The notes below the pieces were generated by a model. The model was not told where the DNA came from and ran no database searches. It saw nothing but the letters and a program-made list of their open reading frames with translations. DNA of 63,481 bases, filler included, from Theionarchaea archaeon (lineage in GTDB: Archaea > Methanobacteriota_B > Thermococci > Methanofastidiosales > SZ-28-30), in assembly GCA_018992565.1 (NCBI GenBank). It is 5 parts of 5 records of this genome, joined end to end, with 100 filler letters (N's around TTAATTAATTAA, not from the genome) between each part and the next. Parts side by side here need not be neighbours in the genome. Positions count along the whole stretch, not along the records: positions 1 to 31,558 come from JACVGW010000021.1; 4 more parts are not named here. One strand, given 5' to 3'. Position numbers and translations under genes: made by a program. How positions within the stretch are numbered: position 1 is the first letter of the stretch; each line of letters opens with the position of its first letter. Positions 2,596 through 25,722 of this stretch are shown here, piece after piece.

Positions 2596-4149
2596 ATGCT
2601 TTCACTCTCTTTCATGGATGGGTACAGGATAGGAACCTTCACCTGGAACAAGAAAACAGCACCTGTTCCCAATCTGCTTAAGGTGAAAAAGGATACCCTC
2701 TACCTCAATGAAATCACCGTTGAAAGGCCTACATTGTATGAAAAAGAGGCACAGACAGAGCTGAGGACAGCGTCAGTGCTGAGAATTCCCTATACTGCTC
2801 CAAGACATATCGCCCTGCGATTCACCAGAAAGAATAGTGACCTTCTATCTTCAAATTCTGAAGCATATCCCATTTATGTTACGAAGTATGACGCTCTGAC
2901 CACCAGGTTCCTGTCCACTATTCCTTTCCATCATCTTTTTTTCATATTCTGTCCTGAAGAGAGGAGACTCCTCCGCACGCTCTTCTCTTTAAGGAATACC
3001 AATCCCCGCTCTCTTCTCTACACACGTGCTGAACCAGAGGAGATACCTGTTCTCCTCACAGCCGGCATAGATCTTTTCAATTACACAGAAGAAAATGAAG
3101 AGGCACTCCGCAGATATCTGGAGACGCCCACCAAAGACTACCTGGAAAAAGAATGCAATTCAACCGTGAGGACAAAAAGGCTGCTTCGCCTGTTGTACAG
3201 GGAGTTTTACGAACACATTGAGAAGTATACCTCATTCAAGAGGAAAAAGGAGCTGTACATATCAGAAGATGCCTTATATCGGCCTGAAGTCATGAGGTTT
3301 CGGCAGAGGGTCAGAGAACGCTACATCCCTCCCTCTCGTGTTGTTGTGCTGCTGCCCTGCTCTGCAAAGAAACCCTATTCTCAGTCTCGATCCCACCGTA
3401 GATTCAGGACCGCGATACCCAGGAATGCATTGCTGACTGAATTGATACTCACCTCCCCCCTGGGAGTCGTCCCTCGAGAGCTGGAGGATTTTGCCAGGTA
3501 TGATATACCAGTCACAGGTCACTGGTCTCATGAGGAAGTCATGGAGACAGCTTCCCTTCTCAATGACATTCTGGCTAAAATTCCAGATCCTGTAGTCTAT
3601 TCCCACATATCTGCTGCATACCAGCCCATCATTGAGCATCTCAACGTTCCGGTGATTGACACTGCACAGGGCGACCCCCTTTCTGAACAGTCGCTAGCTA
3701 CCCTCGCTTCCTATCTCAAAGATGTGGATAGAACTTCCTTTTTGGAGCGAAAAATGAGAGCAGTCTCAGAATTTCTTTTTTCAGAAGACATTTTTCCAGG
3801 CAAGATTTCCATTACAGGCAGGAGAACAAAACGTATAAAATCGGACAAAATTCTGGGCAGGTATTCCTCAGACCTCATCCTCACCCAGGCTGGAGCTGAT
3901 AGAGTAACCACCTATTGCGTAACCATAGATTTCGATCTGAAAGGAGATGTTTTCTGTCCTGGAGTCCTCTCTACGTATTCTGGAATCCGACCGGGAGATC
4001 AGGTTGTAATAAAAAGGATTATAAATGGAGAACATGCAGTAGGTGTGGGTAGAGCAGTGCTCCCCGGATGTATGATGAGAGAAATGGACCGCGGAATGGC
4101 AGTCAAAGTGCACACGAGGTTTCACTATGCAGGAACACATAACTGTTGA
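2596..4149 (+). CDS. arcS: Archaeosine synthase subunit ArcS (DUF5591 + PUA)
   Basis: LLPCSAKKPYSQSRSH, TSPLGVVPRELE, YDIPVTGHWS motifs and C-terminal PUA domain. Confidence 0.8.
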   Translation: MLSLSFMDGYRIGTFTWNKKTAPVPNLLKVKKDTLYLNEITVERPTLYEKEAQTELRTASVLRIPYTAPRHIALRFTRKNSDLLSSNSEAYPIYVTKYDALTTRFLSTIPFHHLFFIFCPEERRLLRTLFSLRNTNPRSLLYTRAEPEEIPVLLTAGIDLFNYTEENEEALRRYLETPTKDYLEKECNSTVRTKRLLRLLYREFYEHIEKYTSFKRKKELYISEDALYRPEVMRFRQRVRERYIPPSRVVVLLPCSAKKPYSQSRSHRRFRTAIPRNALLTELILTSPLGVVPRELEDFARYDIPVTGHWSHEEVMETASLLNDILAKIPDPVVYSHISAAYQPIIEHLNVPVIDTAQGDPLSEQSLATLASYLKDVDRTSFLERKMRAVSEFLFSEDIFPGKISITGRRTKRIKSDKILGRYSSDLILTQAGADRVTTYCVTIDFDLKGDVFCPGVLSTYSGIRPGDQVVIKRIINGEHAVGVGRAVLPGCMMREMDRGMAVKVHTRFHYAGTHNC

Positions 4150-7677: not shown

Positions 7678-8921
7678 ATGAAAATTCTAGAATATGTGGA
7701 AGCACATGAAAAATGGAGAAGTGAGTGTATCAACCTTATAGCGTCTGAGAACATGTCTTCAAAGACCATGGATAGAGCAGTATGTTCTGGGTTCATGCAT
7801 AAGTATGCTGAAGGCTGGCCTGAGAACAGGTACTACCAGGGATGCTATTACGTAGATAAGGCCGAATTAGAAGGTAATTCCTACTTTTATCAGCTTTTTG
7901 AACCTGAATATGTAGATTTACGTCCTATCTCGGGAGCAACTGCCAATATTGCCATGTTCTTTGGGCTGACCCGTCCTGGCGATACACTCATCAGTTTGCA
8001 TACCTCAAATGGAGGGCACATCAGCCATGCTCAGTTTGGAGCTGCAGGGCTGCGAGGATTGAATGTTCTTACCTTCCCTTATGATAACGAGGAGATGAAC
8101 ATTGATCCTGACAAGACCTGCGAGCTTGTGCGAAAGGAATCTCCCAGGCTCATCGTTTTCGGAGCATCGTTGTTCCTGTTCCCCCACCCTGTGAGTCAGG
8201 TTAAGGATGCAGCCGAAGAAGTGGGTGCAGTAGTCGCATATGATGCAGCTCATGTTCTGGGACTGATTGCAGGGAAGAGATTCCAGGATCCATTCAAGGA
8301 AGGTGCAAAGATCATTACATCCTCTACCCACAAGACCTTCCCCGGTCCTCAGGGAGGAGTCATCATGATAAAGGGGCTGGCCCAGGAACAGGCAGCTAAT
8401 TTCCAGTGGGCTACCTTCCCAGGAGTGGTCAGTAACCATCATTTGCATCACATGGCTGCCAAGGGCATAACAGCAGCAGAAATGCTGAAATTCGGGAAGC
8501 AGTATGCTGAGCAGACTATCAAGAACGCTAAGGCGCTTGCAGAAGCCCTTCATGAAGAAGGAGTTGCTGTGGTGGCTGAACACAAGGGGTTCACTGAGTC
8601 CCACCAGGTAGCCCTGGATTTTAAGGAATTCATTGGAAAGTGGGCAGCGCAAACCCTGGAAAAGGCCAACATTATAACTAACAAGAACCTGCTCCCATGG
8701 GATCCAGTAGAAAACTCTGACAACCCTTCAGGAATGCGTCTGGGAACTCAGGAGATGACCCGGATGGGAATGAAGGAGTCTGAGATGAAATATATTGCTG
8801 AGCTCTTCAGACAGGTGATTCTGGACAAGAAGGACCCCGAATCAGTGAAAAAGGAGGTCAGAGAGTTCAGAAAAGACTTCCAGGATGTTCTGTACAGCTT
8901 TGACCAGGAGCAGCCCACATA
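7678..8921 (+). CDS. glyA: Serine hydroxymethyltransferase (stop codon hidden in gap)
   Basis: LIASEN, YAEG, GGHISH, SSTHKTFPGPQGG (PLP Lys) motifs. Confidence 0.95.
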
Positions 8922-13666: not shown

Positions 13667-15220
13667 TTAGCTGAGTTCCTGCTCGAATTTCTTGATGAGA
13701 ATATCCAGCTTCTTGAGTTCTCCCTGATCCAGCACTTCTTTGATCAGTTCGTCTGCTGCAGCATCTATTTCGTTGCGAATCTCTTTCAGCGTTTTCTGGT
13801 CCTTAATGGATGTTATCTGTCCATTTCTCACAATTCTACCAGATTCTTCTCTCACAATCAGCTCAAATCCCGCTGAATGAAGAATTCTCTTGTTCTCCTT
13901 GCAGATGAGCTTTACTTTCCCAGAGTAGAGTATCTTCCTGGTTTCATCAACTACCAGATCCAGGTTTTCTCCCTTCACGGTCAGCTTGTCATTCACTGTA
14001 ACCTGCATCTCTCCCCTTACCAGCACTGTCTTTCCATTGGTGTTGATGGTAATATCTTCATCTTTGGATCGGATTTGAATGTACAGTCCCCTTCCTGCAA
14101 ACCGCCGAGCCCTCGCATATGAATCCTTAACCTGCCAGGGGCCGATGCGGACCTGTTCTCTTTCCGGGGTTTCCGTAACCTCAATAGGGCCAACCTTGAC
14201 ATATTCCCCGTGAGGGGTCTCCCGTACCTTGATGAAAGGGAGATCAACATGCGTTCTCTTCAGTCGTCTCTTCACTTCATCAGAAAGCTTCCCATACAAT
14301 TGAACACGCGCAATTTCCAGGACTTCTTCCTTTTTCAATCCAATGTCCTCAAAAGCGTCCTCGCCAGCGGGGACTGTCAGCTGTTCAGCTTTCACAGATT
14401 GCCATTCCCGTCCTGTGACCACTGTCACTCCTCTATACACATCTTTATACACCTTGAGAAGTGCATCTACAGCGTACGAGCCTTCGCCAAAGTAGATACC
14501 GCCGATTTCTTTGTCCCCTGTCACTACAGGGATGTACAAAGATCCTTTGTTCAGCTTGACCGTGGCCTTGTTTCGAGAAATCGTCAAATCCTCCTGGAGA
14601 GTGCATATCTCTTCCTTGATTTCTGGTTCTGCATCTTCCTCGTCTTCAATCTCAACAAAGAAGGTGGGAGGCCGTTTTAAACCTCCCAAGATGTATCCCA
14701 GTCCTATGGCGATGATTCCCACCACCAGTGCATAGTCTTCCCACGGCTGGAAGATATCAAAGATTTTGATAAGAATCCAGAGCAGGAAGGACACTCCACC
14801 AATTGCCAGTAGTACGGAACGTGCTGCCCAGTAGCCAGCCTTGTGCCGTAGAGCCTTCACTGCATACCCCATAAGCAGCATAATGATGCCTGCAGCCAGG
14901 AAGTAGTCAATGTTGAATCCAACCTCCATGGCACCGAACCAGCCTATCCACCGCAGTATCTTAAATCCAATCCACAATCCTGCCAGCGGCCATCCCAGAT
15001 TGGTGAAGAATTTCTGGACTTTCTTTCCTGTGGAGTACCTTGATTTGAATGCCGGGGGTATTCTGGAGAGCAGATGGAATCCCACTGCCACCTGAAGAAA
15101 CTCCACTTCATACTCATATGTTCCCAGAATATCAGTCACTGCTGCAACCAGCCACAAGATCACGAACACAGCTGCTATCCGTCCTAACATGTCTCCAATT
15201 GTTTCTAGATTGTCTTTCAT
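13667..15220 (-). CDS. Hypothetical membrane protein (about 6 N-terminal TM helices, large soluble C-terminus)
   Basis: 517 aa ORF with hydrophobic N-terminal ~180 aa; overlaps the upstream gene by 4 nt. Confidence 0.7.
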   Translation of the reverse strand: MKDNLETIGDMLGRIAAVFVILWLVAAVTDILGTYEYEVEFLQVAVGFHLLSRIPPAFKSRYSTGKKVQKFFTNLGWPLAGLWIGFKILRWIGWFGAMEVGFNIDYFLAAGIIMLLMGYAVKALRHKAGYWAARSVLLAIGGVSFLLWILIKIFDIFQPWEDYALVVGIIAIGLGYILGGLKRPPTFFVEIEDEEDAEPEIKEEICTLQEDLTISRNKATVKLNKGSLYIPVVTGDKEIGGIYFGEGSYAVDALLKVYKDVYRGVTVVTGREWQSVKAEQLTVPAGEDAFEDIGLKKEEVLEIARVQLYGKLSDEVKRRLKRTHVDLPFIKVRETPHGEYVKVGPIEVTETPEREQVRIGPWQVKDSYARARRFAGRGLYIQIRSKDEDITINTNGKTVLVRGEMQVTVNDKLTVKGENLDLVVDETRKILYSGKVKLICKENKRILHSAGFELIVREESGRIVRNGQITSIKDQKTLKEIRNEIDAAADELIKEVLDQGELKKLDILIKKFEQELS

Positions 15221-15552
15221 AAGAGATCACCTTCCAGATCTTTAAATTCCTTAATAAGTTCCCAGATGTCTGAAAGCCCCAGATTGATTCGTATGCTGTT
15301 CCTGGATATGTCGAGCTTCCCTTCTGCTCGCAGGGTCTTTGCCAGTTCCAAGAGTTTTTCCAGCTTGTCTGACTGGGCTGTTTCCGCACCCAGAAACTGC
15401 TCCCCACATGGACAGTGAAATTCTTCCATCTCAAAATCGGACATCATCTGGTCCCAGTCTTCCTTGTAATCAGCGGGATCAATCTCTCTCTTGACATTGA
15501 GTTTTCGCCCGCAGTGCGGGCAGGTTACTGAAAAAGAGACCCGGTTACTCAT
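15217..15552 (-). CDS. Small zinc-ribbon protein
   Basis: CPHC and CPCG pairs; translationally coupled to both neighbours. Confidence 0.7.
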   Translation of the reverse strand: MSNRVSFSVTCPHCGRKLNVKREIDPADYKEDWDQMMSDFEMEEFHCPCGEQFLGAETAQSDKLEKLLELAKTLRAEGKLDISRNSIRINLGLSDIWELIKEFKDLEGDLL

Positions 15553-16033
15553 TCACATCACCTTTCTTTACATAGAGGAAGCCCACCAGACGAAGGGCGA
15601 TCTTCCCATACACAGTGATCAGATACCTGCCTCGATACCGTTCCTGCTCTGCATACCCCACGTCCATCAAACTGGAGAGATGAAATCGCAGAGGACTGTG
15701 CTCCAGGCCTGTGAGCTCCACCATGTCAGTAAAATACTTGCCGTCGGCATAGAGCGCCTGCAGGATTTTCAGTCGTTCACTGTTGGCCAGTGGCTTGAGC
15801 AGTTCTGCTGCTTTTTCAGGACTGAAATCAGTGTATTCCTCGTAGTCTTCTTTCTGCTCTGAAAGAAGCTTTCTCACTTCAGATGCAATCTCTGCTGTAT
15901 CTTCGGAGGATTCAGGGGGAGGCTTCTGTTGTTTGAGCAGTTCGTCTCTCAGCTGTCTCATCTCAGCTCTCAGCTCTTCTTTGAGTTCCCTTTTCACTTG
16001 TTCTATGTCTTCCATGCTGTCACCATTGTACAT
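15545..16033 (-). CDS. ArsR-like winged-helix regulator with N-terminal coiled coil
   Basis: LKPLANSERLKILQAL...LRFHLSSL...GRYLITVYG. Confidence 0.8.
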   Translation of the reverse strand: MYNGDSMEDIEQVKRELKEELRAEMRQLRDELLKQQKPPPESSEDTAEIASEVRKLLSEQKEDYEEYTDFSPEKAAELLKPLANSERLKILQALYADGKYFTDMVELTGLEHSPLRFHLSSLMDVGYAEQERYRGRYLITVYGKIALRLVGFLYVKKGDVNE

Positions 16034-16294: not shown

Positions 16295-16780
16295 ATGCTC
16301 GTGATTCTTGATGGAGACGGGACACTGTGGAGCGGGGACGTTCTGGCAGGATACCTGACCACACCCCTTCACCAGATTGATGAAAACACGATAGTAGATC
16401 ATCAAGGAAAGAAAATCTGCTTGAAAGAAGAAGCGAGAGAGGTACTGGAAAAGCTTCATGAGAAGAATATATTTGTGGCACTTGCCAGCCAGAACAGGAA
16501 GCTTCCTGTCATTGCATTATTGAGGAGACTGCAGTTGACCCCATATTTCAATTTTCTTGAAGTTTCGTGGACAGAAAAGGATGAAATGATACAAAATATA
16601 CTGGAGATTTTTGAGAAAAAAGGAAGGGATCCTGGAAAGATTTTTTTTGTAGATGATTTTGCGTATAACCTTGAAATTGTTGAGGCCAGTCCCGGACTAT
16701 CTCATGTAATATGTATCAATGCTTCAGAGCTGGATTCCCTCAAAGACCTCCTAGATATTGTGGGGACCCAGACAGAATGA
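16295..16780 (+). CDS. Magnesium-dependent phosphatase-1 (HAD IIIC)
   Basis: DGDGTLW motif I, ASQN, FVDD. Confidence 0.8.
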   Translation: MLVILDGDGTLWSGDVLAGYLTTPLHQIDENTIVDHQGKKICLKEEAREVLEKLHEKNIFVALASQNRKLPVIALLRRLQLTPYFNFLEVSWTEKDEMIQNILEIFEKKGRDPGKIFFVDDFAYNLEIVEASPGLSHVICINASELDSLKDLLDIVGTQTE

Positions 16781-16975: not shown

Positions 16976-17929
16976 CTAGAGCTCCCCTTTTTCCTCAAGT
17001 ACGACCTTTCTCACAATTTCCTGGGTTTCTTGAGGAGGAGTCATGGTGTTCACCAGGTACGGTTCTGCCCGTTCGAAGTACTCTTTAAAGAACGTTGTCC
17101 TGATGCGCAGCTTTCTTTCGTCGCGAACAAGCTGGTGGGGGTTGCAGAAGTCATTTTTCACCATGTAGTCCAGGGCTTCTTTCGGTGATAGGTGATAGTA
17201 CAGTTCATCATCAGGTTCTCTTTCCAGAAAGATGACTTTTACAATACAGGTTTCATCTTTGGCTCTACTTACTCCCAGGACATGACGAATGTCAGCAATA
17301 GCCCTGCCCCTGTTATCCAGTCTCTTGGTTTCTACCAGAGATTCAAACTCAGGATAAATGGAAGCAATATCTTCTCTGATGTAGCAGTTCCTTTCAGAAG
17401 CTCTGGCCAGCACAATGTCACCCATGATGCGGGTGTAGTACCAGTCATCTGAAACCAGGCGTGCTCCCTTTTTCAAGAGAAGTCCATAAGAATGAGTTGT
17501 TTTCCCCATGCCTGAAGGGGCGATAATAGAGACCCCTCTCCCCTTGAAATCTATGGCTGCCCCGTGGACTGAGTGCCTGGAATGAATGGATACATACTCC
17601 TCCAGAAAATCACCTGCTACAGCCAGAGCAAGGCTCTTCACCCATCCATAGTAATCTGAATTGAAGATGAAGCAGGTTTTGCTGACCGGTTCGTACAGCA
17701 CCCTGAACCCCTCGTCATCTGACAAAGCGAACACTCTTCCGTGAGGTCTGATGTATTCGCTCATCTGTTTGAAATTGTCTCCCCACATGTCCTTGAACTC
17801 ATGGTTATCAGTATTCAGCTTGATGCATGCGCCTGCAAGCTCAGCCTTTCTTTCGTAAAATACTCTGTTCTTCAATTTTTCAAGCAATTCGTCCTTTTTA
17901 TCAGGAGTAATCAGCAAGACCTGGTACAT
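16976..17929 (-). CDS. HPr kinase-like P-loop protein
   Basis: VHGAAID, APSGMGKTT (Walker A), VSDD. Confidence 0.7.
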   Translation of the reverse strand: MYQVLLITPDKKDELLEKLKNRVFYERKAELAGACIKLNTDNHEFKDMWGDNFKQMSEYIRPHGRVFALSDDEGFRVLYEPVSKTCFIFNSDYYGWVKSLALAVAGDFLEEYVSIHSRHSVHGAAIDFKGRGVSIIAPSGMGKTTHSYGLLLKKGARLVSDDWYYTRIMGDIVLARASERNCYIREDIASIYPEFESLVETKRLDNRGRAIADIRHVLGVSRAKDETCIVKVIFLEREPDDELYYHLSPKEALDYMVKNDFCNPHQLVRDERKLRIRTTFFKEYFERAEPYLVNTMTPPQETQEIVRKVVLEEKGEL

Positions 17930-18062: not shown

Positions 18063-19457
18063 TCATGATGGTGCAGTATCCTTCTTTATGACTTTTTCCT
18101 TCCACATTCCTGTCCTGAATAATGCCAGTGCCAGGACAGCTCCCAGAACATTACTCAGACCCATCCCGAACCATACCCCGCTGGCACTCCAGCCTACCAC
18201 AAACCCGAAGATATATGCAAAAGGTATTCTCATCCCCCATAATCGGGAAAGCTCAATTATCATGGAAGGAACATTGTGTCCAGATCCCATAAAACAGGCA
18301 TTAACGGCGCTGAACACGCCAAAAAAGGGGACTCCAAATACGAAAACCTTGATAAAGGTATCACCCGCTGCTATCACCTGTGGATCATTGATGAATACCT
18401 GGATGGCAACCCTCCTCAAGGGAAACAGAATACAGCTTCCTACCACGAGAATGAAGAACATTAAAACCATTCCTTTTCGGGCTGCTTCTTCAGCTCGTTG
18501 TATTCTGTTGGCTCCCAGGCTCTGTCCCAGTGTTGTAGAAACGCCCACACCCAGCCCATTGATTGCAATGAACATCAGGTTGATGATCCTGTCGCCTATC
18601 CCGTAAGCAGCTAGGACAGCGCTCTGGTTGGGGAGGCGGGCAATAATATACATGAGGATTACAAACCCGAATGCAGTTCCTGACTGTCCAACAGAAGCAG
18701 GAACTCCAATCCTCAGAATCTGGATAATCCTCCATTTGACTGGTTTTAGACTTGGAATGGATACTTTGATCCCAGCTCTTCCTGAGAAGAGAATATAGAG
18801 AGCGATGGTTGAGGAGACAGACTGAGAGAAGATGGTGGCCACTCCTGCCCCTACTACTCCCATATGAGGAAACCCACCCAGCCCGAAAATGAGCACAGGG
18901 TCAAGAATCAAGTTCAGTAGCACGGTGGCGCCTTCTACCTTCATGGGAGTCACTGTATCTCCGTAGGCTCTCAGAATGAACCCGAAAATGAAAGATGTGA
19001 ACATGAACGGTATGCCAATGAAAATAATCCTTAGGTACTTGGTAGCAAGTATCGCAATATCCTTTTCCAGTCCCAGTAATTCAACGATTTGAGAAGAGAA
19101 CAGAAATCCTGCAATACCTATGCACGCGCCCATGATTATAGAAATAAACAAGACCTGACCTGCGGATTTGTTTGCTTCTCTTGAGTCACCTGCACCCGTG
19201 TACTGAGATATCAGCGCCACTCCTGCAGACCCGAACCCGAATGCCAGTGAAATCAGGAGGAAAATAATGGGCCAGGAGATTTGGAGGGCTGCCACTGCAA
19301 AGGTGCCTTCAGGTGGGACCAATTTTCCCAGCCAGAAGGTGTCCACCAGGTTATACATGGTATGCAAAAGGTTGGTTACCATAATGGGCCAACCCAGTAC
19401 AAACAAGGTCTTGATTATTGGACCTTCTAGAATATCATTCTTAAGAGCTTGCGCCAT
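18063..19457 (-). CDS. MATE family efflux transporter
   Basis: YNLVDTFWLG, GDTVTPM, NLILDP, MGVVGAGVAT; about 12 TM; start moved to MAQALK. Confidence 0.9.
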   Translation of the reverse strand: MAQALKNDILEGPIIKTLFVLGWPIMVTNLLHTMYNLVDTFWLGKLVPPEGTFAVAALQISWPIIFLLISLAFGFGSAGVALISQYTGAGDSREANKSAGQVLFISIIMGACIGIAGFLFSSQIVELLGLEKDIAILATKYLRIIFIGIPFMFTSFIFGFILRAYGDTVTPMKVEGATVLLNLILDPVLIFGLGGFPHMGVVGAGVATIFSQSVSSTIALYILFSGRAGIKVSIPSLKPVKWRIIQILRIGVPASVGQSGTAFGFVILMYIIARLPNQSAVLAAYGIGDRIINLMFIAINGLGVGVSTTLGQSLGANRIQRAEEAARKGMVLMFFILVVGSCILFPLRRVAIQVFINDPQVIAAGDTFIKVFVFGVPFFGVFSAVNACFMGSGHNVPSMIIELSRLWGMRIPFAYIFGFVVGWSASGVWFGMGLSNVLGAVLALALFRTGMWKEKVIKKDTAPS

Positions 19458-19748
19458 CGGCTCTGAATACAGGGACAGTATATAAAGATATTTGATTGAG
19501 ATGGTGACAATTCTTCTGCTGAAGATACAGTCTGATTGTATTTCATAATGAGAGGTCAACAGAATCAAAAAGAAAGTGAGATAGTCCAATCTGAAGTTTC
19601 GCTTTTTGAGAAACCTCACCAGAATCTTGAGAGCTCTGGAGATGTGACATCCTCTCTGCTGTGTTCCTATCTGGAAATCATAGGATCTCAAAGATGTTGG
19701 AGATTCGGGCAGTCACTCTACTTGAGAATGTCAGTATCGGCAGAAACA

Positions 19749-19756
19749 TTTTTATA
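19749..19756 (+). promoter_or_regulatory. TATA box (TTTTTATA) with upstream GAAA BRE-like element for peptide 1 / rSAM operon
   Basis: GAAACA-TTTTTATA about 33 nt before the GTG start; same arrangement before peptides 2 and 3. Confidence 0.6.
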
Positions 19757-19788
19757 GGTTGTACTGCAGGGGAACCTAAGGTGATTCT

Positions 19789-19899
19789 GTGAAGTGTGAA
19801 AAAGTTGAAAAAGGGACGATATGTTCTTTGATACCCAGTTGTCCCCCCTTTGGAATACCAAGTTGTCCTCCTTCCCCATGTAATTGTGTCAATATTTGA
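19789..19899 (+). CDS. Putative RiPP precursor peptide 1 (36 aa: MKCEKVEKGTICSLIPSCPPFGIPSCPPSPCNCVNI)
   Basis: GTG start after AAGGTGATT RBS; paralogous to peptides 2 and 3; immediately upstream of the rSAM/SPASM gene. Confidence 0.8.
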   Translation: MKCEKVEKGTICSLIPSCPPFGIPSCPPSPCNCVNI

Positions 19900-19922
19900 T
19901 TTGGGTCTATGCAGGTGGTGTG

Positions 19923-21236
19923 GTGAAATCGTCAAGATACAACTTTTTTGTGCCGCTGGAAAAAGAAGGCGACTATATTCTCTACAACACATTTAGTGGA
20001 GCCATCTTCTTTGTAGATAGGGAACTGAAAGATGCTGTCAGGAAAAATCCTTCTGGGATTCCAGGAGATATTCTAGAGGATTTCAAGAAAGAATGGGTCC
20101 TCCTTGAAGATGATCTGGATGAGCTTCAGGTAGTCTCAGTGGTCCGGGACGAAATGAGATTCAATGCTTCCAGGTTGCAGTTTGTGATCATGACCACATA
20201 TGATTGCAACCTCAACTGTCCATACTGCTACGAAAAGAAAGACCCCATGACCTCTCTCACTGACGATTCCTGTGCCCGCATTTCAAAATTCGTTGAGAGA
20301 CTCATTGAGAGGCAGCGAGCGCGGGAACTTGACTTTCTCATGTATGGAGGAGAGCCCCTTCTTGAGATTGAGCACATGATGCAGTTGATCCGCCACTTCA
20401 CTGTAGCAGCAGGAGACACAGGGTTCACATTCAGCGTCAGCATGACCACCAATGGTACTCTGTTGACTCCTGAAATAGTGTCTGAACTGGAACAGTATCC
20501 TGTGGAGGTGGTCCAGGTCACCCTGGACGGGCCCAAGTCACTCCACGACCTGAAACGGGTGTATGCTTCGGGTAAGGGGACCTACGAAGACATTATCAGA
20601 GGTATAGACCTGCTGCGGTCTTCATCCATCAGACCGAAGATCAGGGTCAACATTGATGGAGTGAACAAAGATCATATCCCCGAATTACTGGATGATCTGA
20701 AAGAAAGAGGCCTCTCCGATGTCCAGATCTACTACGGCATTGTCAGGACAATTTCCAAGGTGTGTGAATCCTACGGACCGTCCTGCATGAAAGACTCAGA
20801 GATAAAATCAGTTCTTCCCAAAGTATGGGGGGAGACCCTGGCAAGAGGATTTCCCATTCCTTTGAAACCCTTCAATAATCTCGTGGGCTGCGGAATGCAG
20901 AGCAATTCATCCTTCACCATCGACCCTGAAGGACACGTTTACAAGTGTGTCACAGGGACAGGGTACCCTGACCAGCGCATAGGTACGATCAATGAGCAGG
21001 GGGATGTTCCAGCATGGAGTCCAATTTATTACCAATGGTTTTCCAGAAACCCCCTGGAGTTTTCCAGTTGCAGAGCATGTACATTTTTCCCGTTATGTGG
21101 AGGAGGGTGCCCCATGATTGCGTATTCTAGGAAAGGTACCTATCAAAGCGGGGGATGTTTTGAAACCAAAGCTGTACTGAAAGACCAGCTTATCCTGTAT
21201 CTCAAACAGACATATCCTCACAAGTTTACAGAGTGA
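19923..21236 (+). CDS. Radical SAM/SPASM-domain protein, putative peptide maturase
   Basis: CNLNCPYC (CX3CX2C), YGGEP, TTNG, TLDG; SPASM C-X18-C...CRACTFFPLCGGGC...C; ~90 aa N-terminal extension (possible RRE); GTG start after AGGTGG. Confidence 0.9.
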   Translation: MKSSRYNFFVPLEKEGDYILYNTFSGAIFFVDRELKDAVRKNPSGIPGDILEDFKKEWVLLEDDLDELQVVSVVRDEMRFNASRLQFVIMTTYDCNLNCPYCYEKKDPMTSLTDDSCARISKFVERLIERQRARELDFLMYGGEPLLEIEHMMQLIRHFTVAAGDTGFTFSVSMTTNGTLLTPEIVSELEQYPVEVVQVTLDGPKSLHDLKRVYASGKGTYEDIIRGIDLLRSSSIRPKIRVNIDGVNKDHIPELLDDLKERGLSDVQIYYGIVRTISKVCESYGPSCMKDSEIKSVLPKVWGETLARGFPIPLKPFNNLVGCGMQSNSSFTIDPEGHVYKCVTGTGYPDQRIGTINEQGDVPAWSPIYYQWFSRNPLEFSSCRACTFFPLCGGGCPMIAYSRKGTYQSGGCFETKAVLKDQLILYLKQTYPHKFTE

Positions 21237-21335
21237 CGTCGGGAAGCGATTCCATTTTGTCTTCTCAGTACTCTCGTATTCAGTAGTTCCTTATGAAATC
21301 ATTTTCTGCATTCTCCAAGAGAAGAAATGAAAAGA

Positions 21336-21343
21336 TTTTTATA
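21336..21343 (+). promoter_or_regulatory. TATA box for peptide 2
   Basis: GAAAAGA-TTTTTATA about 30 nt before ATG 21374. Confidence 0.6.
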
Positions 21344-21373
21344 CGGGGTATCCAAGAGAATGACGGTGATTCC

Positions 21374-21472
21374 ATGAAGTGCGAAAAAGTGGAAGAAGGT
21401 GGACCCATGATAGGGATTCTAGCATGGAGACCTACCTGTCCTCCTTATCCATGTGGATGTATAAACATATAG
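21374..21472 (+). CDS. Putative RiPP precursor peptide 2 (32 aa: MKCEKVEEGGPMIGILAWRPTCPPYPCGCINI)
   Basis: GGTGATTCC-ATG RBS, own TATA box, T-rich tract after the stop; paralog of peptides 1 and 3. Confidence 0.85.
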   Translation: MKCEKVEEGGPMIGILAWRPTCPPYPCGCINI

Positions 21473-21482
21473 ACGTAATTCC

Positions 21483-21500
21483 TTTTCTTTTTTTCTTATT
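21483..21500 (+). terminator. Oligo-T archaeal terminator after peptide 2
   Basis: TTTTCTTTTTTTCTTATT shortly after TAG. Confidence 0.5.
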
Positions 21501-21635
21501 CAATCAGCCATGCCAAGGGACGGATTGGTGTGCAGTCACCCCATTTTTTTGAAAAAGACATTATTACATACGTTGGTGTACTCGTCTCTTTCCCATTCTA
21601 CCTATTTTCAAAAGGAGGATAGCATAATAGAAACC

Positions 21636-21643
21636 TTTTTATA
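21636..21643 (+). promoter_or_regulatory. TATA box for peptide 3
   Basis: GAAACC-TTTTTATA about 29 nt before ATG 21673. Confidence 0.6.
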
Positions 21644-21672
21644 GAATTCAGCTAGGATAAAGTGGTGATTCC

Positions 21673-21771
21673 ATGAAGTGCGAAAAAGTGGAAGATGGTG
21701 TTGAACCATTGTTGGCTATTGGACCTATAAAGCCGTGTCCCCCTTATCCGTGTGGATGTATAAACATTTGA
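21673..21771 (+). CDS. Putative RiPP precursor peptide 3 (32 aa: MKCEKVEDGVEPLLAIGPIKPCPPYPCGCINI)
   Basis: GGTGATTCC-ATG RBS, own TATA box, T-rich tract after the stop; paralog of peptides 1 and 2. Confidence 0.85.
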   Translation: MKCEKVEDGVEPLLAIGPIKPCPPYPCGCINI

Positions 21772-22058
21772 TTTCTTCACTTCTACTTTTCCTTTTTTGA
21801 CTACCAAGGACAGAGCCTTACCTCTGTGCGAGTGAAGCCTGGCTCTGAATATTCATTGATCACTGACCCCAGAGATTCTCCCGTGGAGAGAAAGTGACTT
21901 CCAGAATTCTTCTGCAAGAACCATCGCACATAGACACAATCTGAACCCAATCCCATACAACATTTGAATGAGCAATCGTCTTACATGGTCAAACTGGAGC
22001 CCTGTATGATCCATATTGTGACCAAAACCTATAAATCCCCCCTCCAACCTGTGATACT

Positions 22059-24274
22059 ATGTGGCACACCAAGGAACTGGGACAGGTCTTTGCTGAGCTG
22101 TCCAGTGGGAAGCAGGGACTAACTGAGGAGCAAGCGGAAAGGAGACTGGAAGAATCAGGGTACAATGAACTGAGAGAACGAAAAGGAAGGGGAATCTTTT
22201 CCATTTTTGTTGAGCAGTTCAAAGATTTCTTTACTGGTGTGCTTATCCTGGCTACTGTGGTCTCGTTTCTCCTGGGGGAAACTGTAGATGCTTACGTCAT
22301 TCTTATTATTGTTTTTATTAATGCTGTTATGGGCCTTGCCCAGGAATACAAGGCAGAAAAGGCTATTGAACGTCTCAAAGAGCTATCTTCTCCTTCTGCC
22401 ACAGTCTTGCGGGACAGGAATATCAGAGCTATCCCTGCACGCGAAGTTGTTCCTGGAGATATCATCATTTTGAAGGCAGGAGATTTCATCCCAGCAGATG
22501 CCCGGGTTTGTGAAGCCTCTTATCTCAAAGTGGATGAGGCCTCCCTCACTGGTGAAAGCATCCCTTCCACAAAGGTTACCGAGACCATGCCTGATGTACC
22601 TCTGGCTGATAGAGAGAATATGGTGTACCTCGGGACCGTCATCACTGACGGAAAGGGCAAGGCTGTGGTGACTGCCACCGGTATGAATACTGAAATGGGC
22701 AAGATCGCTGAAGAGATTCAGGCCATGGAGGTAGAGAAAACACCCCTTCAGGGGAAGTTGGAGAAGTTNNNNNNNNNNNNNNNNNNNNNNNNNNNNNNNN
22801 NNNNNNNNNNNNNNNNNNNNNNNNNNNNNNNNNNNNNNNNNNNNNNNNNNNNNNNNNNNNNNNNNNNNTATACAGAGAGGAGCTGGAAGCCCAGTATCCC
22901 CGGGTCAAGGAGATCCCTTTCAGCTCCGAACGAAAACTGATGACAACTCTTCATGAGGTTGACGGTACCTTCCACATGTACACCAAAGGCGCTCCTGATG
23001 TGATTCTTGATTTGTGTACCCAGATCCTTGAAGGAACCACCATTAGAAAGCTGACCCAGGAGAAGAAGGAGGAAATTCTCTCTGTATACCAGGAAATGGC
23101 CTCACAGGCTTTACGCGCTTTAGCCATGGCGTACAAAGACATGAAAACACTTCCAGAGGATCTAGAGTCTGCAGAACAGGACCTCATCTTTGTGGGGATC
23201 CAGGGAATGCGAGATGACCCTCGCACAGAAGTAAAAGAAGCGATTTCCGTCTGCCAGAAAGCTGGCATCAAGTCCATGATGATCACGGGAGACTATAAGG
23301 CCACAGCTGTAGCAGTAGCAGAAGATGTGGGGATTACTGGCGGAGCTCTGACAGGACAGGAATTGGAGCAATTGACGGATGAACAACTGGCAGAAGTCAT
23401 TGATGGTATTGGTGTTGTGGCCAGGGTTTCACCAGAACATAAGACCCGTATTGTCACCGCCTTAAAAAGCAAAGGTCACATTGTGGCTATGACGGGTGAT
23501 GGAGTCAACGATGCTCCTTCTTTAAAAAAGGCAGATATCGGCATCGCCATGGGTATTACAGGGACTGACGTGGCAAAAGAAGCTGCAGACATGGTGCTCA
23601 TGGATGACAATTTCGCCAGCATTGTGAATGCAGTGGAAGAGGGTAGACACATCTTTGACAATATAATAAAATTCATCTACTTCCTGCTGTGTTGCAACGT
23701 TGGAGAGATTCTCGTCCTGTTTTTGGCAATCCTTTTGGGACTGTCCAGACCGTTGCTTCCCATTCAAATCCTGTGGATCAACTTGATTACAGATGGCTTT
23801 CCTGCTCTCGCTCTGGGTGCTGACCCTCCTGAAGAAGGGATCATGGATCGTTCCCCTCGAAATCCAAGTGAAAGCATTTTCGCCAGGGGACGGGGAACGA
23901 GCATTGTGGAGATGGGACTTGTGATGAGTGTTCTTGTATTGGTTGGATTCTATTTCTCTGGACAGGGAGATGCCCATGCCCGGACACTGGCCTTTTCTTC
24001 TCTGGTGTTTGTACAGCTGGCTCATGCATTTAATGCACGGTCTGAGAAGAGATCGATTTTCAGTGTGGGTCTCTTCACCAACATGTGGTTGGTTGGCGCT
24101 GTGGTGCTGTCTGTTTCACTGCAGATTGCCGTGGTGTACGTTCCCGTATTGCAGTCCGTTTTTGGGACATCACCTCTTCACATGGAGGATTGGCTGATCA
24201 TCCTGGGACTTTCGGGAGTTATTGTGGCAGCAGGTGAACTCATGAAAAAATCCAGAGGCTATTCTGGACAATAA
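22059..24274 (+). CDS. Cation-transporting P-type ATPase (type IIA, Ca2+-like), interrupted by a gap
   Basis: LTGES, KGAP, MITGD, TGDGVNDAPSLK, ILWINLITD; the DKTGT region falls in the N gap. Confidence 0.9.
22769..22868. other. 100-N scaffold gap (true size larger)
   Basis: TM3-4 and the DKTGT phosphorylation motif of the ATPase are missing, which needs far more than 100 nt. Confidence 0.9.
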
Positions 24275-24420: not shown

Positions 24421-25722
24421 ATGCCAGAAAAAGTAATCATCATGGGCGCTGCAGGAAGAGACTTTCATGATTTCAATGTATACTTCAGGGAAAACCCCCA
24501 GTATGAGGTGGTGGCCTTTACGGCAACGCAAATTCCTGATATTGAAGGGAGGCAATATCCCTCTGAGCTGGCGGGATCTCGCTATCCTAAGGGAATACCT
24601 ATACTGCCAGAAAGTGAACTGCCTGCGTTAATTAAGAAACATGATATAGATACTGTTTTCCTCTCCTACAGTGATCTTCCTCATGAATATGTTATGCACA
24701 AAGCATCTGAAGTGCTGGCTGCAGGTGCCAATTTTGAGCTCCTGGGACCCAACCATATTCAGTTGAAGTCTACAGTACCTGTTATTTCCATATGTGCAGT
24801 GAGGACAGGGTGCGGCAAGAGCCAGACCACAAGACGGGTAGCAGACATACTGAGAAAAGCGGGAAAGAAAGTCGTGGCAGTGAGACATCCCATGCCATAC
24901 GGAGACCTGAGAGAACAGATTGTCCAGAGATACGCAACTTATGAGGATATGGATAAGTACGAGTGTACCATTGAAGAACGAGAAGAATATGAGCCTCATA
25001 TCGACAGAGGCGTCGTTCTCTACGCAGGTGTGGATTACGAGAAGATCCTCAGAGAAGCTGAGAAAGAAGCAGATATTATCCTGTGGGACGGAGGAAACAA
25101 TGATTTCTCCTTCTATAAGTCTGATCTGCACATTGTCGTGGCAGATCCTCACAGACCAGGACATGAGTCATGCTACCATCCGGGTGAGGCAAATATCAGG
25201 ATGGCCGATGTTGTGGTGATTAACAAGGTGGATACTGCCTATCCTGAGGATGTGTTTGCTGTCAGGGCGAGTATCAGAGAGCTGGCCCCTCAGGCAATAG
25301 TGGTGGAAGCCGCGTCCCCGCTGTTTCTTCAGGCAGATATTGCTGGAAAAGACGTGCTTGTAGTCGAAGACGGTCCTACGCTGACTCACGGAGGAATGCC
25401 TTATGGGGCTGGGGCTATGGCAGCTGAGAAGCTGGGCGCACAGCCCGTTGATCCCTATCCCTATGCAGTAGGTTCCATCAGGAGCACCTTCGACAAGTTT
25501 GAGCACTTGGGACCAGTGTTACCTGCCATGGGATATGGAGAGAAGCAGATCAAGGAACTTGAAGAGACTATTAATGCAGTGGAGTGCGATGCAGTAATCA
25601 TAGGGACGCCAATTGACTTGAGCAGAATAATCAAGATCAATAAGCCAGCCTACAGAGTAACATACGAACTTCAGGAGATTGGAAAACCGACACTGGAAGA
25701 TGTACTTAAGAAATTCCTCTGA
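24421..25722 (+). CDS. Cyclic 2,3-diphosphoglycerate synthetase-like P-loop protein (COG2403 type; possibly arginine synthetase)
   Basis: MGAAGRDFH, AVRTGCGKSQ, RHPMPYG, DGGNND, EDGPTLTHGGM. Confidence 0.75.
   Translation: MPEKVIIMGAAGRDFHDFNVYFRENPQYEVVAFTATQIPDIEGRQYPSELAGSRYPKGIPILPESELPALIKKHDIDTVFLSYSDLPHEYVMHKASEVLAAGANFELLGPNHIQLKSTVPVISICAVRTGCGKSQTTRRVADILRKAGKKVVAVRHPMPYGDLREQIVQRYATYEDMDKYECTIEEREEYEPHIDRGVVLYAGVDYEKILREAEKEADIILWDGGNNDFSFYKSDLHIVVADPHRPGHESCYHPGEANIRMADVVVINKVDTAYPEDVFAVRASIRELAPQAIVVEAASPLFLQADIAGKDVLVVEDGPTLTHGGMPYGAGAMAAEKLGAQPVDPYPYAVGSIRSTFDKFEHLGPVLPAMGYGEKQIKELEETINAVECDAVIIGTPIDLSRIIKINKPAYRVTYELQEIGKPTLEDVLKKFL

Follow-up and report, generated by a model that had tools for sequence, protein, structure and literature searches.

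Gene clusters for peptides that are synthesised ribosomally and modified after translation (RiPPs) of the radical S-adenosylmethionine (rSAM) type are widespread in archaea and have been predicted in great numbers, and almost none of them has a known product, as far as the available part of the source states (PMC12144867). A putative cluster of this type is described here from a Theionarchaea archaeon (assembly GCA_018992565.1), an uncultured sediment archaeon of the Theionarchaea/Methanofastidiosia group. The window, i.e., the whole stretch of 63,481 nucleotides (nt) that was analysed, contains a cassette of one rSAM/SPASM enzyme gene and three short open reading frames (ORFs), pep1, pep2, and pep3. 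Positions 1–31558, to which the cassette belongs, are a single contig of the assembly. The locus is regarded as a credible, self-contained RiPP cassette, in which the ORFs encode precursor peptides and the enzyme is their maturase, and this explanation as a whole is considered likely.

Several described systems resemble the cassette. CteB and CteA (SCIFF, thermocellin; PDB 5WGG/5WHY) form a minimal two-gene cassette of precursor and maturase with thioether chemistry. CteB is the nearest solved structure to the present enzyme, both by sequence (E = 1.7e-25) and by full-length fold, including the RiPP recognition element (RRE). However, the identity is ~19%, and the SCIFF maturase model TIGR03974 gives 79.4 bits (cut-off 425). 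The precursors of SCIFF systems have a length of about 45 amino acids (aa) and six cysteines, and their motif differs from that of the CPPxPCxC peptides here. PapB and other freyrasin-type maturases are rSAM/SPASM thioether enzymes acting on C-x3-D motifs. The spacing C27-x3-N31 in the present peptides is analogous, although the putative acceptor is Asn, not Asp. The PapB model (NF047865) matches the enzyme with 142 bits (cut-off 340), and the match starts at residue 89, past the N-terminal domain. The anaerobic sulfatase maturases (anSMEs; PDB 4K36-4K39) have the same rSAM and SPASM core (Z about 29 over residues 83–433), but they act on sulfatase proteins and lack the N-terminal RRE, to which ~80 extra residues correspond here. 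Their model, TIGR03942, gives 104.7 bits (cut-off 349).

The best-scoring family of the enzyme is CefB (378.2 bits over the full length, cut-off 600), from the 'Cys-every-fifth' system CefA/CefB (NF038108/NF038107). The architecture of RRE, rSAM, and SPASM is common to both, and short Cys-rich precursors are located beside the CefB enzymes in archaea of the same class. The leader of CefA, MEWIVEP, shows a short N-terminal pattern similar to MKCEKVE here. The present peptides, however, have no match to CefA at E <= 1 (cut-off 30 bits). They do not carry Cys at every fifth residue and contain a CPPxPCxC block instead. The term 'Cys-every-fifth' was not found in the literature searched, and the chemistry of CefA/CefB therefore appears to be uncharacterised.

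The second-best family is TIGR04463 (230.8 bits, cut-off 525), represented by CrpC of Methanococcus voltae. According to the available part of the study, CrpC is an archaeal RRE-rSAM-SPASM enzyme that carries three [4Fe-4S] clusters and has seven cysteines in its SPASM domain, it forms ranthionine cross-links in its neighbouring Cys-rich substrate CrpA, and paralogous Crp substrates have a common N-terminal recognition region (PMC13692751). The domain architecture and an adjacent Cys-rich substrate, a putative one here, are shared with the present cassette. The substrates differ in scale: CrpA, as described in that part, is a protein of 28.8 kDa in which an N-terminal region of 47 residues is combined with ten repeats of 17 residues, whereas the putative substrates of the present enzyme are 32–36 aa long with a 9-residue leader. 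The same text describes a screen of proteins of at least 100 aa only, and peptides like pep1–pep3 were therefore outside its scope (PMC13692751).

The present system would work like the CefA/CefB, CrpA/CrpC, and SCIFF cassettes, yet it scores below all of their cut-offs. What is new is a precursor peptide family and an enzyme subfamily for which no model exists, both within a type of peptide-modifying system that is already known. A preliminary description of this DNA proposed a new archaeal RiPP system. The novelty holds for the peptide family, but the enzyme belongs to a recognised clade of maturases of Cys-rich peptides (CefB, TIGR04463/CrpC, and Clo7bot) and is not a new kind.

Three probable peptide genes and their relatives

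The preliminary description listed three short ORFs around an rSAM gene, with MKCEKVExG and PxCPP(Y/S)PC(G/N)C(I/V)NI in common. All three are present with the translations then given (Table 1). Their alignment contains MKCEKVExG at the N-terminus and CPP(Y/S)PC(G/N)C(I/V)NI at the C-terminus, and the latter is followed immediately by the stop codon. The cysteines of the core are spaced C-x4-C-x-C.

Table 1. Features of the cassette and of its surroundings; positions count along the window.
Feature	Position	Strand	Basis or remark
Cassette (indel) with pep1, maturase, pep2, pep3	19493..22019	+	blastn against G001 locus L183, gene order
pep1, candidate precursor, GTG start, 36 aa	19789-19899	+	internal IPSCPP duplication; ends CPPSPCNCVNI
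Radical SAM/SPASM maturase, 437 aa	19923-21236	+	begins 23 nt after the pep1 stop
pep2, candidate precursor, 32 aa	21374-21472	+	ends CPPYPCGCINI
pep3, candidate precursor, 32 aa	21673-21771	+	ends CPPYPCGCINI
TATA-like putative promoter box of pep1, AAACATTTTTATAGG...	19744..19763	+	direct-repeat family D3 (3 copies), pattern test
Putative ribosome-binding site of pep1, GGTGATTC	19780..19787	+	sequence, pattern test
TATA-like putative promoter box of pep2	21331..21350	+	direct-repeat family D3, pattern test
TATA-like putative promoter box of pep3	21631..21650	+	direct-repeat family D3, pattern test
T-rich tract behind pep2, possible archaeal oligo-T terminator	21480..21500	+	sequence reading
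T-rich tract behind pep3, possible terminator	21772..21799	+	sequence reading
ArsR-type regulator	15545-16033	-	upstream neighbour
HAD/MDP-1-like phosphatase	16295-16780	+	upstream neighbour
HPr-kinase C-terminal-domain protein (35 bits)	16976-17929	-	upstream neighbour, not counted in cassette
MATE transporter	18063-19691	-	upstream neighbour, not counted in cassette
P-type (cation-transporting) ATPase	22059-24274		downstream flank of cassette

A profile of the three peptides, run against the six-frame translation of the genome and 176 fetched loci, recovers only these three (E = 1e-21 to 6e-11); the next match has E = 1. The copies are mosaics. A block of 37 nt, which covers the promoter-proximal site and nine codons, is 81–97% identical between copies, and a second block of 32 nt, which covers the last eleven codons, is 75–94% identical. 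Between pep2 and pep3, the 20 conserved codons show three synonymous changes and one non-synonymous change, and the 12 middle codons have 0/12 residues in common in the ungapped register. Relative to the other copies, the leader of pep1 has GTG in place of ATG as its start, three synonymous changes, and one replacement. The extra length of pep1 is 12 nt, exactly four codons, including the second IPSCPP unit.

The stretch is present in 20 public DNA runs from seven studies, and no RNA run is among the holders listed. In run X19, a diverged contig of 645 nt overlaps 19839–19965 and covers the 3' part of pep1 and the spacer. In the last 10 codons of pep1, all four differences listed (19869, 19875, 19890, and 19896) are synonymous changes at third positions, a count that applies to the listed differences, with 58 further entries and the sites within ~30 nt of the contig ends outside it. 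The 13 nt behind the pep1 stop contain six substitutions and one insertion. Changes within the conserved peptide ends are mostly synonymous, and these ends are under purifying selection.

Upstream of every peptide gene is (A/C)(A/C)NTTTTTATA, and 21–24 nt further on is GGTGATTC(C/T), abutting the start codon. Within the window, the pattern TTTTTATA-N18-30-GGTGATTC has three occurrences, each precisely ahead of one of the ORFs; the expectation from 100 shuffles is 0.00, and the result is well beyond chance. When a start codon is added to the pattern, these are the only three sites in the 2.8-Mb genome, and the reversed control gives 0. These upstream signals, and the T-rich tracts downstream, could be interpreted as signals for archaeal promoters, ribosome binding, and termination. 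Co-transcription of pep1 with the enzyme gene is probable.

It is very improbable that the three units are untranslated. They would then be duplicated regulatory or RNA elements, each consisting of a promoter and conserved transcript ends, and their ORFs would be incidental. Gene callers did miss the short ORFs: a 59-aa ORF of the window containing pep2 matched nothing in the protein collection, not even itself, and it is because of this missing self-match that the short ORFs are taken to be uncalled there. Against such elements, however, frame and length are kept despite the full turnover of the middle, the additional 12 nt of pep1 preserve the frame, and third-position synonymous changes are found in the conserved blocks, both within the genome and in the diverged strain. 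Each start has GGTGATTC at the proper distance. Between 19300 and 22100, no Rfam family reaches its threshold (two chance-level matches, E = 0.26 and 0.55), and the antisense ORFs over the three copies are inconsistent, differing in frame and extent. Judged from these sequence features, the short ORFs are in all likelihood translated genes.

The relatives found outside the genome bear on the same question. A profile search of 1.84 billion representative proteins gave four matches at E <= 0.001. Three of them (P0146, P0148, and P0149) are ORFs of 58–85 aa whose last 32 residues, up to the stop, are a copy of the peptide. The remaining one, P0147, is a repetitive protein of 1081 aa with 11 stretches over profile positions 12–23 only, and it was dropped as a chance match. 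A word-index search added a fourth outside member, P0158, with the same 32-residue end and stop. The family thus has seven members (pep1–pep3, P0146, P0148, P0149, and P0158), all ending in C[I/V]NI-stop. In the alignment of pep1–pep3 with P0146, P0148, and P0149, the residues M1, K2, E4, K5, E7, G9, C22, P23, P24, P26, C27, C29, N31, and I32 are invariant. P0158 was compared by eye and retains every one of them. Cys3 is replaced by Tyr in P0148. The closest outside relatives of pep3 are P0146 and P0158, and the only differences among these three are in the variable middle (positions 11, 13, and 14).

In the longer outside ORFs, the in-frame part upstream of the peptide is unconserved except for GDS before Met, which spells the ribosome-binding site. 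As only GDS is kept, the true start of the outside members is argued to be the Met of MK[C/Y]EK. The outside homologues keep the residues, the stop position, and the GGTGATTC site, which also argues against untranslated elements.

The preliminary description did not recognise the motif from any described precursor family, and none was encountered in the profile libraries or the literature searched. The peptides have no match among Pfam or NCBIfam models, and four motif strings of the family were not found in the literature searched. The peptide DNA motif is absent from 132 other genomes of the class (many incomplete), and a pattern scan of viral contigs gave 0 matches.

The leaders of pep2 and pep3 share an exact repeat of 32 nt (21365–21396 and 21664–21695). 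Contigs of public runs break at this repeat, and three contig records are only 32 nt long. Short-read assemblies may therefore often fragment the locus or collapse the peptide copies.

The probable maturase and its N-terminal domain

The start of the enzyme is placed at GTG 19923 rather than at 19884 or 19920, because the identical protein P0001 and ten orthologues begin with MK.SRYN. Pfam assigns Radical_SAM (73 bits, cut-off 29.5) and Fer4_12 (31 bits). The CX3CX2C motif corresponds to C95/C99/C102 and is invariant in 100 homologues. The seven SPASM cysteines are complete (C323-x13-G337-x4-C342, C383-x2-C386-x5-C392-x3-C396, and C412), and they are invariant across the same homologues save C386, which is nearly invariant. 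The rSAM enzyme with a 7-Cys SPASM domain that had been proposed from the sequence is thus confirmed.

Behind CefB and TIGR04463, the NCBIfam ranking continues with Clo7bot (203 bits), geopeptide (192), and FlmE/OhkG (156), followed by PapB. The CefB model gives 363 bits for the orthologue P0007 and 378 bits for the orthologue P0011. Two orthologues and four related archaeal enzymes are, like the enzyme itself, under every NCBIfam cut-off. Kinship with anSMEs had been named as an outcome that would speak against a peptide maturase. The peptide-maturase families score higher (378 vs 105 bits), and the enzyme falls among the peptide maturases that bear an RRE and not among sulfatase maturases.

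An AlphaFold2 model built with 100 homologues has a mean predicted local distance difference test score (pLDDT) of 94.5 and a predicted template modelling score of 0.91. Its N-terminal part consists of three strands (7–11, 17–22, and 28–32) and three helices (33–41, 48–56, and 67–79), with pLDDT 91–98. Foldseek ranks CteB first, then TigE, then anSME, and SuiB and ChlB are also among the structural matches. The alignment with CteB covers model residues 4–432 (Z 30.8, root-mean-square deviation 3.9, 389 aligned) and that with TigE residues 1–434 (Z 26.1). The alignment with anSME begins only at residue 83 (83–433, Z 29.5). In the model, residues 1–80 have the beta3-alpha3 fold and the position of the RRE in CteB and TigE. 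The preliminary description had given the N-terminal extension ~90 aa; the extension is present, but it is about 80 residues long. The expected RRE appears in it as a predicted fold, although no Pfam PqqD match accompanies it, and the assignment therefore rests on the predicted fold.

Orthologues of the enzyme form ten clusters in metagenomes at 53–66% identity, followed by a gap down to 40%. Their source names include Theionarchaea and Candidatus Methanofastidiosia metagenome-assembled genomes (MAGs). No orthologue is found in 33 other genomes of the order, nor in 132 others of the class (many incomplete). When metagenome and genome contigs were searched with the generic patterns CGGGCPMI and CNLxCPYC[YF], only paralogues of <=36% identity are among the matches listed. 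P0129, a 39-aa member of the enzyme cluster, was rejected, being unrelated in sequence.

Run X19 also contains a relative that matches the 3' end of the maturase gene (21038–21236). It is more abundant, with depth 23, and shows 29 differences in 199 nt, mostly at third positions, with two residue changes among 24 listed. The relative becomes unlike the window right after the maturase stop, and the downstream peptide content may therefore vary between strains.

Association of peptides and enzyme, and the possible chemistry

In the same-genus genome G001, 222 unrelated nt are located in place of the 2,527 nt (2.5 kb) of the cassette, between the same MATE and P-type ATPase genes. Based on blastn, positions 1500–2924 of the G001 locus correspond to 18068–19492 of the window and positions 3147–3895 to 22020–22768, both at ~80% identity. 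As G001 has no cassette block between the same flanking genes, the peptides and the enzyme are gained or lost as one block. Genome G002 is uninformative, with MATE at a contig edge and a different gene ahead of its ATPase. No inverted repeats are found in 19300–22100.

Of 133 genomes of the class, one has an enzyme orthologue (E <= 1e-110) and one has the peptide DNA motif, and it is the same genome; this counts as one observation. The motif search beyond the genome, proposed in the preliminary description, yielded the four metagenome proteins above. Two of them share their source and exact contig size with enzyme orthologues: P0149 with P0004 (63% identity; both Logan, longest contig 18,718 nt) and P0146 with P0132 (both Logan, contig 4,643 nt). 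This is two of the three outside peptides with comparable data. Cys-rich peptides are also found directly ahead of related archaeal maturases, namely in Thermococcales-like genomes, on metagenome contigs, and in one further genome of the order. The leaders of these peptides (MEFEIIEKG, MEFYVLEGG, MELTFIGSG, MKLKVLIRA, and MEWIVEP) resemble the leader here, and the MEWIVEP peptide is a CefA match (58.7 bits).

Modelling of the full enzyme with pep3 points in the same direction. The interface score ipSAE is 0.69 (0.67, 0.69, and 0.73 in separate runs), and the best of three controls is 0.00. The mark used for this score is reached by 116 of 157 solved complexes and by 2 of 215 mismatched pairs. 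Contact agreement between runs is at least 65%, and the pLDDT of the partner is at least 53. In the predicted complex, peptide residues 1–13 contact enzyme residues 22–58 and 74. The peptide extends beta3 of the RRE-like domain by one antiparallel strand, in which its residues 2/4/6 face enzyme residues 32/30/28. The contacts of Cys22 and Cys27 are with residues 318, 324, and 396, adjacent to SPASM cysteines.

The three peptides are very probably substrates of the neighbouring enzyme. If they were not, they could be real Cys/Pro-rich mini-proteins, for example with a metal-binding or redox function, that stay unmodified while the enzyme acts elsewhere, and their adjacency would be shared inheritance. 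In line with this, the genome contains 32 similar maturase ORFs (E < 1e-24), so an enzyme and its substrate need not adjoin, and pep2 and pep3 each appear to be served by a promoter and a likely terminator of their own. A link to metal handling has been made for Cys-rich archaeal products of related clusters in the accessible part of the Crp study (PMC13692751). On the other side, gain or loss affects the peptides and the enzyme as a single block, and they recur jointly on two contigs, judged by size. Only 23 nt separate the end of pep1 from the enzyme start. In the docking model, for which the controls are at 0.00, the conserved N-terminus is located on the RRE, and homologous maturases elsewhere also adjoin Cys-rich peptides. 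Unmodified mini-proteins are thus improbable.

With the peptides as substrates, the following mechanism can be proposed. Each precursor peptide would be transcribed from its own TATA-type promoter. The N-terminal nine residues MK[C/Y]EK[V/I]ExG would be the leader and, according to the model, would pair as an extra strand with beta3 of the RRE domain. The docked leader would bring the invariant CPPxPC[G/N]C[I/V]NI block into the rSAM/SPASM active site. There, the enzyme would most likely join Cys sulfurs to carbons of nearby residues, forming thioethers of the sactionine or ranthionine type. This chemistry is proposed because of the ranking of related families and the precedent of CrpC. It can be speculated that the invariant Asn31, in the C27-x3-N31 spacing, is an acceptor. 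The product would be a small rigid knot at the C-terminus beneath a hypervariable middle segment of 12–16 residues. The cassette has neither a protease nor an exporter, and the leader may therefore stay on the product. A secreted or signalling role has been proposed for other two-gene ranthipeptide cassettes, and the same role is a guess for this one. A diversified peptide that is secreted or acts as a signal would fit the hypervariable middle, the presence of three paralogues, and the patchy distribution.

The peptides might also be substrates for a chemistry other than thioether formation, i.e., C-C or C-O cross-links, epimerisation, or C-terminal tailoring like that of mycofactocin and PQQ precursors, in which case the product could be a small cofactor-like molecule. 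MftA and PqqA are C-terminally processed rSAM/SPASM substrates, and in all seven members of the present family the conserved block is at the extreme C-terminus, ending at C[I/V]NI-stop. SPASM maturases of like fold (SuiB, TigE, and ChlB) carry out several chemistries, the enzyme is under every family cut-off, and the cassette has no protease or exporter. However, the top families of the enzyme are maturases of Cys-rich peptides or of thioethers (CefB, TIGR04463, Clo7bot, and PapB, with CteB from the sequence search of the structure database), and the core is conserved above all in its three invariant cysteines. As for a cofactor precursor, three paralogues with a hypervariable middle better suit a diversified peptide product. 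Such other chemistry is unlikely, and thioethers are the preferred reading.

Several points weigh against the proposed explanation. For the peptides, the C-terminal block of pep1 shows three non-synonymous and 2–3 synonymous changes relative to the other copies, the leader of nine residues is unusually short, and a protease or transporter gene is absent within the cassette. For the enzyme, Pfam SPASM scores 19.2 bits, just short of its cut-off of 21.5, no curated family cut-off is reached, and residues 1–85 match no PqqD/RRE or other Pfam family even at E <= 10. The thioether chemistry is drawn by analogy from characterised enzymes at <=30% identity. For the association, none of the enzyme contigs listed matches that of P0148 (JGI, longest contig 8914), P0158 is on a contig of 632 nt, and the co-location elsewhere is judged from equal contig sizes. 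Because solved look-alikes exist (CteB-CteA, SuiB-SuiA, and ChlB-ChlA), the pass of the complex model may partly reflect likeness to them, and its ipSAE calibration is only rough because own alignments were used. Finally, cross-talk is possible, as the genome holds about 30 paralogous maturases.

Surrounding genes, paralogous maturases, and implications

The MATE transporter and the HPr-kinase-like gene were tried as cluster members and rejected, as both are kept (~80% DNA identity) in G001, which has no cassette. The MATE gene in particular is conserved beside the same ATPase there and is therefore not in the unit. The HPr-kinase-like, MATE, and P-type ATPase genes are collinear between G001 and the window. 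A run of N at ~22769–22870 (X in translations) is inside the ATPase gene, because of which the gene looks like two ORFs; in G001 it is one open frame of 884 aa. At the thresholds applied, neither Pfam nor NCBIfam gives a match to the long ORFs at 24421–25722 (+, 433 aa) and 13667–15220 (-, 517 aa). A scan of 12 neighbouring ORFs revealed no sulfatase gene.

The 2.8-Mb genome contains 32 ORFs like this maturase at E < 1e-24 and 52 at E < 1e-10. For rSAM/SPASM peptide maturases, such an expansion is unusually large. The same-genus genomes G001 and G002 have 13 and 9 matches at E <= 1e-20, and most other genomes of the order have none. The paralogues are often in tandem pairs or larger arrays, such as those at C52:2365-4981, C64:5398-8263, C105:2768-5423, C154:3209-6033, C13:34215-50375, and C30:25075-33005.

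Uncalled candidate precursors are located beside some paralogues: C128:10549-10725 (-), C30:26636-26776 (+), C4:7390-7467 and 7764-7862 (-), and L113:2821-2919 and 3226-3303. One candidate is 58 aa long with four CALEVQPTF repeats, another is 46 aa long and ends with GCGGSCCSCFDYTCDHW, and a pair begins with MYI(R/K)SEIEEISMEIDQCMCC and has orthologues in a Theionarchaea MAG contig. A small-ORF scan around the nearest paralogue, on contig C154, gave no convincing precursor. A maturase of a Thermococcales-like genome that matches TIGR04463 (305 bits) better than CefB (231 bits) is accompanied by two peptides of the CefA type, with 58.7 and 27.3 bits (L010:733-1074 and L010:1501-2715). Cys-rich peptides of 66–72 aa with the leader MEF(E/Y)(I/V)(I/L)E are found at L008:2898-3116, L009:1210-1431, and L031:2222-2422, and no NCBIfam model covers them.

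The cassette is minimal, with one enzyme and three naturally varied candidate substrates of 32–36 aa, and it is a convenient test case for how this archaeal enzyme clade acts on small peptides; the one characterised relative, CrpC, acts on a 29-kDa protein, according to the available text (PMC13692751). It is suited to asking how a leader of nine residues could suffice for recognition by the RRE, and it bears on why these sediment archaea carry dozens of such enzymes. Standard gene calling misses such precursors. For RiPP specialists, the locus is a tractable lead rather than a surprise.

A broader reading can be put forward tentatively, and it is doubtful that all of its parts hold together. 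The CPPxPC[G/N]C[I/V]NI peptides might be the first small RiPP family made by an archaeal rSAM enzyme with an undescribed cross-link pattern, possibly with three thioethers, a Cys-Asn or Cys-Pro link among them, within the final eleven residues. As the cassette contains no protease, the leader of nine residues might be kept permanently, and the hypervariable loop above the knot would be the functional end. If this is true, the cassette would be one of about 30 maturase systems in a 2.8-Mb genome, and this uncultured sediment lineage would be among the densest known reservoirs of radical SAM peptide chemistry.

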